A stretch of 39,059 nt of DNA from a plasmid: sequence record NZ_CP048903.1. One strand, 5' to 3'. The position numbers are program-made. Shown piece by piece: positions 3,001 to 6,000 of this stretch. Each line of letters opens with the position of its first letter. Positions within the stretch are counted from its first letter, which is position 1.

Positions 3001-6000
3001 ACAATTTCATTATACTGCATTTTAATTTCTTCCAAATGCCTTTTATGGCGCGGATTCCTCATATCGACCTTACTTGGCAATATACCCAAAAAAGCCAATT
3101 TGCTGTTCACTTTTCTGATATTGCCTATTGTTGCAGCCATCTGTTTAATTCCTTGTAGGCTGTATGTTTCCAACTCGATCGGACATAACACATAATCCCC
3201 GGCCGCCAGTGCAGCCGCCAACGTGTTACCTAAACTGGGCGGAGTATCAATAATACAGACATCGAATTGCCCGCCCGCTTTTAATTTGTCGATGTTTTGC
3301 GTAAAAGACTGAACAGCATTTTGCAAAGTCATATTCTGCACGTTAGCCAAATCGTTTGTCGCCGGGGAAAGAGCCAGTGAAACGTTGCCGGGCATATGTA
3401 AATCCGCATCTTCCATATTTCCAAACAAACGGCCGGAACCGAAAAGACACGTTTTGTCTCGAAGAGAGTAACTCGCATTCCCCTGCGTATCCAAATCAAT
3501 TACTAAAACCCTCAGTCCAACTGTTTCCATATGCCAGGCAAGATGAAGCGACATAGCCGTTTTTCCTACCCCGCCCTTTTGGTTTGCCACCACTAAAATC
3601 TTCATTCCTACACCTCATATTTTATTTCTGAACGCGATAACAAAAGTGAGCCATCCCATTACGATACCGAACGTCAAGATAAATTTGCCGATATAAATCC
3701 ATGAATCAGCCATATTCCAGTGGTACAGCATTTGGCACAAAACATAGAAACTGTACATCCAAGCAAACCATCGGACAGGGAAAAGCAAATAGGCGATAGC
3801 TAACACCATATAAACCACTTCAAACATTTTTTTTCCAGCTTTGGATTTAATTCTGTCCATAGGAGCCTCCGTCCGATATAGTTTGTATTATAGGATAAAT
3901 TATCCTATTTGTCAAGCAATTTTAGCGGCTAAAATTTTATTTACCAAAATTTCTCAATACCCACATACAAGCTCAATAAAACCCAATAGGCATATGTGAT
4001 GGATGATTCCCCACTGATGAATCTCCTGAAAGCTCTACCATTGGTGTCTTTCAACCCTAAATACCTGCTAACTTGTTTTTGAGTCATTCCCGTTGCTAAC
4101 CACAATTCTTTGACCTCATCAGCCGTAGGGACTGCCCATTGCGGAAACCGGTGGAAACATTCTGGACGGATATTCAGGTCTTTTTTTTGTATCAAGTTAT
4201 GCTCTTCAATATTTTGAAGATGCCATTTCTTTGCTTGAAATGCTTGGTAAGGAGTAAGTAATACGGTGGTAGAAATTAAATCGGTCATTTGAAAGTTCTC
4301 GGCAATTTACCCTTGGAGTAAAATGAAAAAGATCTAAATCGCCCGTAGGGCGACAGACGAATTTATGAAATTATCTAAAATCGCCGTAGGCGACAGCAAA
4401 TTGATAAAACCGGCTTTTCGGTCGCGAAATATGGTTATAAATGGTTAGATAATGGTTAGGGCAAAAAAAAGCGGTTTTTTTCAATTAATATTCAGTATGT
4501 TGCAAACATGGCGGCATGTGTAAATCCGCGATTTAGCATGTGTAAATCCGCGATTTAGCATGTGTAAATCCGCAAGGGAATTAGGATATTTTGTCCTAAA
4601 AGCATGTGTAAATCCGTAAATTTTGCTCATATTTTAGGCGATACCGAATGTTATGCACAGGTTATCCACAGTTTTGATTTTTAAAATAGGTTTTTTATAT
4701 TTATTTTGTCTGTTTGTTTTTTAATTTTTATCGCATATCTTGACCTGCATGTTTTGGTATTTTTGTCAAACCGGCCATCGGCATGTGTAAATCCGCAAAT
4801 GGCATGTGTAAGTCCGCAAACAGTGAAAATTTGCTGTTTTTTGGCATGTGTAAATCCGCAAATGGCCTGTTTGGGGCATGTGTAAATCCGTGCTTGTGGA
4901 TAATTTTAACGCTCGACGATAATCTTCCCGGATAATACAAAGGCAGTTTTTACCAACTGCGCCTCGGTGAGTTCGGCACAAATCTTTTTAGCATTTTGAT
5001 TTTGCGTTTTCGCTGGGGAGTTGATTTGGTCGCTGCCGCACATTGCTAAAAATGCAGGAATAGGTATAGGGTTGGGATGTTTGTGGCTAAAGACATAATC
5101 GGTGAGCCGCCTAGCCATTGGAGAAAGTTTTTTGTATTGACTCCAAGGGATGTTGGAAAATGTGTTTCCGGCAAAAAGCACGATTAGTTTTTTATCGATG
5201 CTGACTTTGTAACGTGTCGGTTCGCCTTTGATGTTTTCAATTCCGACATAATTGTCAATAAGGGAAATACCTCCGCTGACGCCGTAGGTATTTCCGTTTT
5301 TGATATAGATCTCTGTCGCTTTCATTCTGCTCAAAGATTCCCGGACACGTTTATAATAGGCTCCGCTGGTATCCCATCCGATGTCCTTAATAAGCTGCCT
5401 GATGTCAAATTCGACGTAATTCCCCAGAGGGAAACGACGGCAGTAATCTACAAGCTGCATCCATATCAGCTCGTCATCCACTGAACGGAGCTCGGTACCT
5501 GTGTAAAGGATCTCTACTTTTTCTGAGATATGGAAAAGTTTTTCACGGGAGAAAGTTTTTCTCGGCACCCGATGATTTCTTGCTGTAAACAAACATGATC
5601 GGGCGAAATCGTTCGGCATCGCTCTATGCTTTGAACCAAAGATAGTATTTCCAAACAAATCCTCTATAATAAGGTTGTCGTCTGTCGGAATGCCTTTTGA
5701 TTTCAAGTATTCTTCCCTTTGGGCTTCATCCCTGCGTTCGGCGACTAAATTCAAATAAGGAAGCACTTCCTGAACATTTTTCATAATTTATCCTAAGTCT
5801 TGTTCGGGGTCGTAGATAAATGAGGGGTCTGATGATTCTTCCCGTCCGGCAGGGGGTTTGAGGTTGCTGTATTCAATACGGCTGGCAATCATCTGGTCTT
5901 TATAGATTTTTTGCCCATCTTTTTCATAGTTGTTATTGCTTATCCTTCCTTCTATCAGGATAAGGGAACCTTTGCCGCAATACCTGACGGCGTTCTTGGC

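Follow-up and report, generated by a model that had tools for sequence, protein, structure and literature searches.

The gonococcal conjugative plasmid (pConj) carries two copies of a compact module in which an operator for KorB (OB), a consensus sigma-70 promoter and a 17-bp palindrome follow one another on the minus strand. We describe them in a stretch of 39,059 nucleotides of the plasmid record NZ_CP048903.1, called the window below, where they occupy positions 3887..3933 (module 1) and 23122..23169 (module 2). Taken as a whole, their sequences make it likely that these are two strong promoters repressed jointly by KorB and by a long form of KorC, for which the palindrome would be the operator (OC). 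We also favour, with less assurance, a direct contact between the two repressors: long KorC would touch KorB through an N-terminal helix resembling that of KorA and TrbA, lock the KorB clamp in a KorA-like manner and thereby repress cooperatively. Over the region tested, the window is 99.9% identical to Neisseria gonorrhoeae conjugative plasmids such as pEP5289 (NC_014105.1); the IncP-like (incompatibility group P) backbone of the gonococcal conjugative plasmid was described by Pachulec & van der Does 2010.

Two copies of a predicted promoter module

Copy 1 (3933-3887, minus strand) reads TTTAGCCGCTAAA-ATTGC-TTGACA-AA-TAGGATAATTTATCC-TATAAT and copy 2 (23169-23122, minus strand) reads TTTAGCGGCTAAA-ATTTAT-TTGACA-AG-TAGGATAAATTATCC-TATAAT, for overall lengths of 47 and 48 nt. 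Their likeness is limited to about 60 bp, beginning 5 nt before OB and ending 7 nt beyond the -10. A preliminary description of this DNA had reported a three-part module recurring at both places in the same order, and both copies indeed read so; the identical spacing that it gave, with OB 5 nt from the -35, applies to copy 1, and the gap is 6 nt in copy 2. The OB of copy 1 (TTTAGCCGCTAAA, 3921..3933), centred near -47, is identical to the RK2 OB (PMC2680271) and invariant in a 10-sequence alignment (A4), and that of copy 2 (23157..23169) is also exact. As had been stated, both promoters combine a perfect TTGACA (3910..3915 and 23145..23150), a 17-nt spacer and a perfect TATAAT (3887..3892 and 23122..23127); transcription is predicted to start near 3880 and 23115. 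The palindrome, TAGGATAA-T-TTATCCTA at 3891..3907 and TAGGATAA-A-TTATCCTA at 23126..23142, starts 2 nt after TTGACA, and its final TA is the first TA of the -10. It is perfect over 17 bp in both copies and occupies the spacer and the -10, in agreement with the earlier account, covering about -27 to -11 in copy 1. The centres of OB and OC are 28-29 bp apart.

Such sites are not expected by chance. A sigma-70 scan of the whole window (both strands, spacers of 16-18 nt) returned only two sites with at least 11 of the 12 consensus positions, namely the two modules, each of which scores 12/12 and has a 17-nt spacer; the shuffled window gave a mean of 0.01 sites at 12/12. These are predicted to be very strong sigma-70 promoters. 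The palindrome TAGGATAA-N-TTATCCTA occurs exactly twice in the window, shuffled versions giving 0.12 matches even with up to three mismatches (0.00 with up to two for shuffled pEP5289). For the OB pattern, the 13-bp palindrome TTTAGC(G/C)GCTAAA, the window holds six perfect sites, and seven matches with up to two mismatches compared with 1.33 expected. Pachulec & van der Does 2010 reported a 52-bp repeat of 86% identity between two putative ParB sites; this repeat is the same pair of modules, in which neither a promoter nor a second operator was then recognised.

The palindrome as a predicted variant KorC operator

The preliminary description had left the palindrome without a binding protein and proposed a 115-aa helix-turn-helix (HTH) protein and TrbA as candidates. 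We read the OC frame directly from the sequences of pB8 (IncP-1beta) and six further IncP-1-type plasmids. In pB8, klcAp and kleAp both read OB ... OA-TTGACA-N3-TAGGACATTTTGTCCTA-ATAT, where OA is the KorA operator. In the six other plasmids the frame is TAGG(G/A)CA-NNN-TG(C/T)CCTA, placed 2-3 nt after the -35 and running into the -10. The -35 ahead of OC is TTGACA at most promoters (klcAp, kleAp and related ones) of these seven plasmids, and a Xylella plasmid carries TAGGGTATTTTTCCCTA ahead of klcA-korC. Genetic evidence identifies the klcA, kleA and kleC promoters as targets of KorC repression, and in pOXA-48 too a predicted KorC site is placed between -35 and -10. Because the signature TAGG-N9-CCTA and its register recur at IncP-1 klcAp and kleAp, we assign the pConj palindrome, as a predicted KorC site in the canonical register, to the KorC operator family. 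The 115-aa protein, encoded directly upstream of module 1 (3941..4288, minus strand), gains as the candidate binder, being a KorC homologue already annotated as korC in 2010, when the 81-aa gene downstream of module 1 was annotated as kleE (Pachulec & van der Does 2010). TrbA becomes unlikely, since operator signature and register are both of the KorC type.

The pConj operator shares the outer TAGG...CCTA and the -35/-10 placement with the IncP-1 sites, whereas its inner half-site departs from TAGGRCA: the half-site TAGGATA differs from TAGGACA or TAGGGCA by one inner base (T at position 6) in each arm. We read TAGGATA as a predicted specificity variant that tracks the long-KorC clade.

The modules are closest to the KorA- and KorC-repressed promoters kleAp and klcAp of IncP-1 (pB8/R751-type, RK2), with which they have in common the TTGACA, a 17-bp TAGG-N9-CCTA running into the -10 and an upstream OB; module 1 also sits at the map position of kleAp, between korC and the kle genes. 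They differ in that OB and the -35 are not separated by a KorA operator and OB is therefore 5-6 nt from the -35 instead of about 17 nt or more, and in lacking the conserved hairpin of the 5' untranslated region (gaaggccgggc...gcccaggtc). In contrast to kleAp, module 1 would directly drive incC-korB. The resemblance to RK2 korAp that had first been pointed out therefore stands as a functional analogy, with a class-I-type OB and a second operator over the spacer and the -10, and not as the closest homology. In this analogy OB lies next to the -35 (5-6 nt, 4 nt at pB8 korAp), a second repressor site covers the -10, incC-korB follows downstream, the operator centres are 28-29 bp apart (OB-OC) compared with 32-33 bp (OA-OB, RK2 korAp), the second repressor has an aromatic helix of the KorA Y84 type and KorB keeps the equivalent of F249. 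It holds better than could be known at first, because the predicted binder carries a KorB-contact motif of the KorA/TrbA type. The differences from korAp are also clear: both the second operator and the DNA-binding domain belonging to it are KorC-like and not KorA-like, the interaction motif is N-terminal in pConj KorC and C-terminal in KorA, and the pConj repressor gene lies upstream of the promoter, outside the operon, so that korC is not obviously autoregulated from module 1. Neither module contains an OA as read, and module 1 does not show the korAp arrangement in which korA, incC and korB are transcribed together behind an OA.

A third, imperfect OC-type site is present on the minus strand at 4582..4598 (TAGGACAAAATATCCTA), between the oriV iterons and 294 nt upstream of korC. 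Its two arms differ, one being of IncP-1beta type (TAGGACA) and the other of pConj type. No change in the site is seen in pConj variants with 94-99% backbone identity (94.4% in contig L018), nor in L011 with its KorC of 88% identity, and a weak promoter match (TTTACA-18-TATCCT, 9/12) overlaps it. This site is a candidate for KorC binding and could serve KorC autoregulation or KorC control of replication. Three other places were considered and rejected as operators. The near-match to the palindrome at 5779-5795 is the trfA Shine-Dalgarno region (TAGGATAAATTATG), that at 6607-6623 overlaps the trbA terminator, and TAGGATAA beside the OB at 1351 belongs to the kfrC Shine-Dalgarno region, where the Eikenella plasmid described below has GGAGG.

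Long KorC and its N-terminal motif

Over residues 37-115, pConj KorC shares 36-39% identity with the KorC proteins of IncP-1 and Xylella plasmids (tblastn, E down to 7e-11) and about 45% with a Methylomonas plasmid regulator. The KorC alignments have 13 invariant columns in 14-15 sequences, and I40, R41, C44, W51, P54, E58, G78, L79, R85 and R88 are invariant in both alignments A1 and A3. An AlphaFold2 (AF2) model of the monomer, built from a 6-sequence alignment, gives this core a predicted local distance difference test score (pLDDT) of 82-94, with helices at 56-66, 70-77, 85-92 and 99-109. Its best Foldseek matches are Xre-type HTH repressors (template-modelling score to target 0.5-0.8, root-mean-square deviation about 2 A, E only about 0.3). 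Sequence and model together identify residues 37-115 as a predicted KorC-type Xre HTH core. Pfam and NCBIfam contain no model for the KorC family, and a KorC sequence search of the PDB gave chance matches only. The KorC repressors of RK2 (85 aa), RA3 (a global regulator) and pOXA-48 share with pConj KorC the homologous DNA-binding core and a palindrome between -35 and -10. The recognition helix reads RAFRRF in pConj KorC and RTVRRW in IncP-1 KorC. pConj KorC also differs from the classical 85-aa protein in a 36-residue N-terminal extension bearing a motif otherwise seen in KorA, TrbA and KlcB; we found this long form only in pConj, in one Eikenella plasmid and in five metagenomic clusters.

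The domain common to KorA, TrbA and KlcB is needed for cooperativity with KorB, and KorA Y84 (F in some alleles) is critical (PMC2680271). KlcB too carries this KorA/TrbA C-terminal domain (PMC2680271). In the crystal structure of KorB-KorA-DNA, Y84 stacks on the E248-F249 peptide bond of KorB (PMC11790492), and F104 plays the same role in TrbA (PMC13584720), which is established as a second co-repressor of KorB (McLean et al. 2026). KorC residues 7-26 (TTVLLTPYQAFQAKKWHLQN, encoded at 4211..4270, minus strand) align with residues 93-112 of pConj TrbA (ITVILPRYKAFQVKKWNDDA, 6507..6566, plus strand) and with pB8 KorA 73-92 (VTAVLPEHQAFIVKKWEADA), F17 falling on KorA Y84 and TrbA F104. Within this segment KorC 8-22 (TVLLTPYQAFQAKKW) fits the pattern (V/I)(L)LPxHQA(Y/F)IVKKW. 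By blastp-short the KorC motif is 62.5% identical to pConj TrbA over 16 aa (E 1.4e-5) and 53% identical to pB8 KorA over 15 aa (E 0.003). We also searched all 753 six-frame open reading frames (ORFs) of the window with a 30-column profile made from the motifs of IncP-1 KorA and KlcB only. It retrieved TrbA (E 5.6e-8), then KorC (E 0.0018), the next match having E 3.2; KorC rose to E 1.1e-6 when two TrbA sequences were added to the profile. For an equal database size, E was 6e-5 to 0.02 with five independent long KorCs, four of the five lying below 0.002, and 0.15 with the Eikenella protein. LLTPYQA and W22 are invariant in all seven long KorCs (alignment A3). The residue at the Y84 position is F17 in pConj and Y in P0005 and Eikenella, the same F/Y interchange as described for KorA and TrbA.

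The partner surface is kept as well. The pConj KorB (305 aa, 1927..2844, minus strand) has the Pfam domains ParB_N, KorB and KorB_C and matches RK2 KorB (8QA8/8QA9) with E 4e-68 in phmmer, whose residue-level alignment places E217-F218 on E248-F249 of helix alpha10. F218 is invariant in the four KorBs compared, two of them from long-KorC relatives. A tblastn search of the window with pB8 KorA returned the TrbA C-terminus, the KorC N-terminus and a chance-level match at 7882-8055 (E 0.23), and no korA. Since KorC has the KorB-contact motif, KorB has kept the Glu-Phe pair and korA is absent, KorC probably replaces KorA as the KorB co-repressor. The canonical TrbA that pConj itself encodes (121 aa) is similar to KorC in joining an Xre-type HTH to the same aromatic helix; it differs in having the helix at its C-terminus and in recognising other DNA.

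Two origins of the extension were considered. A fusion of the 3' end of klcB to korC is not supported, because the motif sits in the middle of KlcB (around residue 220 of 344-468), and a recent gene conversion from trbA is argued against by the nucleotide identity of only 32/60 across the motif.

Conservation of the module in relatives

A protein search gave five full-length long-KorC clusters (88, 67, 60, 57 and 56% identity); searching plasmids yielded a further KorC, 46% identical, on an Eikenella exigua plasmid. In the 88, 67, 57, 56 and 46% relatives korC is followed by OB, the -35, 2 nt, the palindrome and the -10, with a kleE-like gene or parA-korB coming next; the flanks of the module cannot be aligned. 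The 60% relative has the module behind trfA. Among these relatives OB and the -35 are separated by 2 to 15 nt. The 10-sequence alignment shows little or no variation in OB, in the outer TAGG/CCTA and at several -35/-10 positions, and the DNA just downstream of the -10 is unalignable. The Eikenella palindrome TAGGTTATTTTAACCTA (TAGGTTA...TAACCTA) has a matched substitution in its two arms, and the recognition-helix segment reads GRTFRRF in Eikenella, GRAFRRF in pConj and DRTVRRW in IncP-1. Such a two-arm change is as would be expected for a dimer site co-evolving with its protein.

Two of these relatives deserve separate mention. One is a 5.8-kb metagenomic contig (L015, Logan SRR20950952) that has a long korC, the OB-OC module and parA-korB together with a Rep3-family initiator instead of TrfA; since the cassette is paired here with Rep3, the korC/OB/OC/korB control and partition cassette appears to move between replicon types. 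The other is the Eikenella exigua plasmid (NZ_CP038019.1, 39.8 kb, from a brain abscess), a syntenic relative of pConj with tra, trb, trbA, ssb, trfA, long korC, parA, korB, kfrB, kfrC, a zeta toxin and a duplicated trbL. Its OB sites number five but only one OB-OC module is present, and MOB-suite types it as 'mobilizable' despite its full trb set.

Genes placed behind the two modules

Behind module 1, on the minus strand, come a gene for a kleE-like small membrane protein (3615-3860; its KleE Pfam match is weak, E 0.093), incC/parA (2850-3605) and korB. A Shine-Dalgarno GGAGG and an ATG about 20 nt after the predicted start agree with the earlier proposal that this module heads the small-membrane-protein-incC-korB operon. 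The order korC-module 1-kleE-incC-korB corresponds to that of pB8, korC-kleAp-kleA-kleB-kleE-kleF-korAp-korA/incC-korB; judged from sequence, the pConj order is the IncP-1 order with its middle removed. Module 1 is therefore the positional counterpart of kleAp, and in a lineage without kleA, kleB, kleF, korAp and korA it would now be the central-control promoter for kleE-like, incC and korB.

Module 2 heads the genetic-load block, in which epsilon-like, zeta, epsilon, zeta, 143-aa 'marR' and resolvase genes occupy 18837..22803 on the minus strand (PMC2848598). The earlier claim that it drives the double epsilon/zeta operon is thus sound as to position and only plausible as to expression, because the first epsilon gene is about 336 nt away and other variants carry different cargo in the leader. 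Module 2 is kept in pEP5289 and in metagenomic pConj variants, in which the DNA on both sides is replaced; it forms a conserved 60-bp island between two insertion hot spots (23011-23121 and about 23227). On its upstream side tetM enters about 58 bp from OB; the window is a pConj-type plasmid without this insertion, and its match to tetM plasmids breaks at this distance. On its downstream side pEP5289 has an extra gene, ngonSK11375, inserted directly after the -10 (L017 9074-10066 also corresponds to this region). Another variant, L020, has a different 757-bp segment there (10453-11209), with a 43-aa ORF and a 108-aa membrane ORF in the same orientation, and the final base of the -10 is exactly where it ceases to match the window. 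The module 2 promoter hence seems to be a fixed expression site for variable cargo.

In the two zeta toxins of this block (19889-21094 and 21320-22528; 401 and 402 aa) the Zeta_toxin domain is joined by a KfrB domain at the C-terminus (Pfam E 7e-7 and 3e-5). Separate VbhA-antitoxin/KfrB-domain gene pairs occur in the Eikenella plasmid.

A proposed joint repression by KorB and KorC

We propose that each module is normally kept repressed by the two plasmid proteins KorB and KorC. KorB would load at the OB centred near -47, in the geometry of the class I OB at korAp, and a dimer of long KorC would bind the 17-bp palindrome, where it would occlude RNA polymerase because its predicted site spans about -27 to -11. 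The N-terminal helix of KorC could then contact helix alpha10 of KorB, with F17 against E217-F218, so that the KorB clamp would be captured and locked at the promoter by KorC, as it is by KorA in RK2, and repression would be cooperative. After entry into a new host cell, a transient burst of expression would be expected, as described for RP4. Module 2, as a second copy of the 60-bp cassette, would place the genetic-load block under the same control, and one circuit would serve both partition (incC-korB) and the toxin-antitoxin/resolvase cargo, as the preliminary description had suggested.

Several observations weigh against this scheme or parts of it. The motif match is short (15-16 residues), with an E value of only 0.0018 among 753 ORFs for the strictest profile. 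In the AF2 monomer the KorC helix 13-26 has a pLDDT of about 60, and the strand expected before it is not predicted. In KorA the same domain also mediates dimerisation (PMC2680271), so the KorC motif could serve KorC dimerisation instead of a contact with KorB. The literature searched holds no report of KorC-KorB cooperativity for any plasmid. As to the footprint, the relatives were found by a KorC search, and finding korC beside the palindrome is therefore in part a product of the sampling. Neither a scan for OB-N(8-30)-palindrome nor a KorC-profile scan gave any match in a collection of one genome per species, and the pattern scan of metagenomes returned only pConj variants with 94-99% identity; the wider footprint therefore rests on the contigs found through KorC. 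Finally, korC lies upstream of module 1 and its own control is left unexplained by the model, and module 2 is about 336 nt away from the first epsilon gene.

The most serious alternative is that KorC binds the palindrome and KorB binds OB, both acting independently, and that the motif serves KorC dimerisation or another partner. The domain of KorA and TrbA does dimerise and does occur in KlcB, and the shortness of the match, the low AF2 confidence and the silence of the literature fit this idea. Yet the classical 85-aa KorC works without the N-terminal segment, which is thus not needed for KorC's own dimerisation; the aromatic residue of KorC (F/Y) and its E-F partner in KorB are both conserved; and among the plasmids and contigs examined, the long form is confined to cases in which korA was neither found nor annotated, and in all of them the KorC site has an OB beside it. 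We regard independent action as quite possible, though less probable than not. It is far harder to credit that TrbA or the 143-aa 'MarR' protein binds the palindrome and that KorC acts elsewhere, and we hold this to be very improbable. TrbA is a genuine KorB partner and in RK2 binds across -10 regions, and the 143-aa gene, which belongs to the operon headed by module 2, would typically be autoregulated. But the signature and register of the palindrome are those of KorC, unlike any TrbA site; a separate palindrome, CAATATATTG, in the trbB promoter region is a candidate TrbA operator; the palindrome follows korC in contigs with no trbA or marR within reach, one of them with a Rep3 replicon; and the 143-aa protein has no Pfam match and cannot account for module 1.

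A further view concerns module 2 only, which might be a passive recombination duplicate with no regulatory role, or with a role only as an extra KorB loading or centromere site. It does lie in an insertion hot spot, between tetM upstream and variable cargo downstream, the first annotated gene behind it in the window is about 336 nt away, and the Eikenella relative manages without a second module. All the elements of copy 2 are intact, nevertheless, with 12/12 hexamer positions, the 17-nt spacer and a perfect palindrome, and the 60-bp island was kept when both flanks were replaced; the match of L020 stops at the last base of the -10 and its new ORFs have the same orientation. A purely passive module 2 is in our opinion unlikely, and joint repression by KorB and long KorC is the explanation that we retain for both modules.

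Known architecture and new elements

The architecture of OB, promoter and OC is already known from IncP-1 plasmids, and the repeat itself was seen in 2010. In the pConj literature we found no description of native plasmid promoters or of transcript mapping, and no account of pConj regulation. As far as the searchable literature shows, three elements are new: these pConj promoters and their operators, the predicted change in KorC specificity, and a KorC with a putative KorB-contact motif in a lineage without KorA. Whether long KorC is a third class of clamp-locking co-repressor of KorB, with the aromatic helix of KorA/TrbA placed at the N-terminus of KorC in a Neisseriaceae-associated IncP-like lineage devoid of KorA, is in our judgement evenly poised.

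Among gonococci, pConj disseminates tetM and also mobilises the beta-lactamase plasmid; it owes both its extreme stability and its sensitivity to a new antibiotic lead to its partition and epsilon/zeta systems. Regulators and operators can now be named as candidates for its two strongest predicted promoters, together with predictions at the level of single residues, KorC F17 and KorB F218. The latest RK2 work asks about partners of KorB other than KorA and TrbA, for which long KorC is a concrete candidate. The comparison suggests a short aromatic helix as a transferable adaptor for a ParB-type clamp. If so, this helix would be a portable module allowing unrelated DNA-binding domains to recruit the KorB sliding clamp, and long KorC would have taken over the central control promoter and wired toxin-antitoxin cargo into the KorB network.

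Other sites in the window

The palindrome CAATATATTG lies at 6689-6698 in the trbA-trbB intergenic region, just ahead of trbB, and also at 35288 and 38013 with one mismatch. Its count in the window, six matches compared with 1.46 expected, is marginally above chance, 2 of 100 shuffles reaching six. It resembles the RK2 TrbA operator, and we presume it to be a candidate OT, that is, a TrbA operator. Another OB (6213-6225) is placed between the divergent ssb-trfA and trbA; the trbA ATG is 5 nt downstream, with no visible Shine-Dalgarno sequence.

Between oriV and korC (4330-4400) there are two similar GC-rich hairpins, tgtcgcctacggcga ttttagat and tgtcgccctacgggcga tttagat, with TTT(T)AGAT coming directly after each hairpin. 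Counterparts occur upstream of korC in L012 and in the Eikenella plasmid, and L013 has a GC-rich hairpin of different sequence at the same position. These hairpins may be origin elements, or terminators that shield korC from transcripts running through from trfA. Within an AT-rich segment of oriV, at about 4440-4470, TAACCAT is present three times as direct repeats with 11-bp spacing. The Eikenella plasmid has three repeats of TAACCTAT (35662-35690), in which the repeat equals its OC half-site TAACCTA. The oriV repeats are probably a DNA-unwinding element, and the match to the Eikenella half-site is probably a coincidence.

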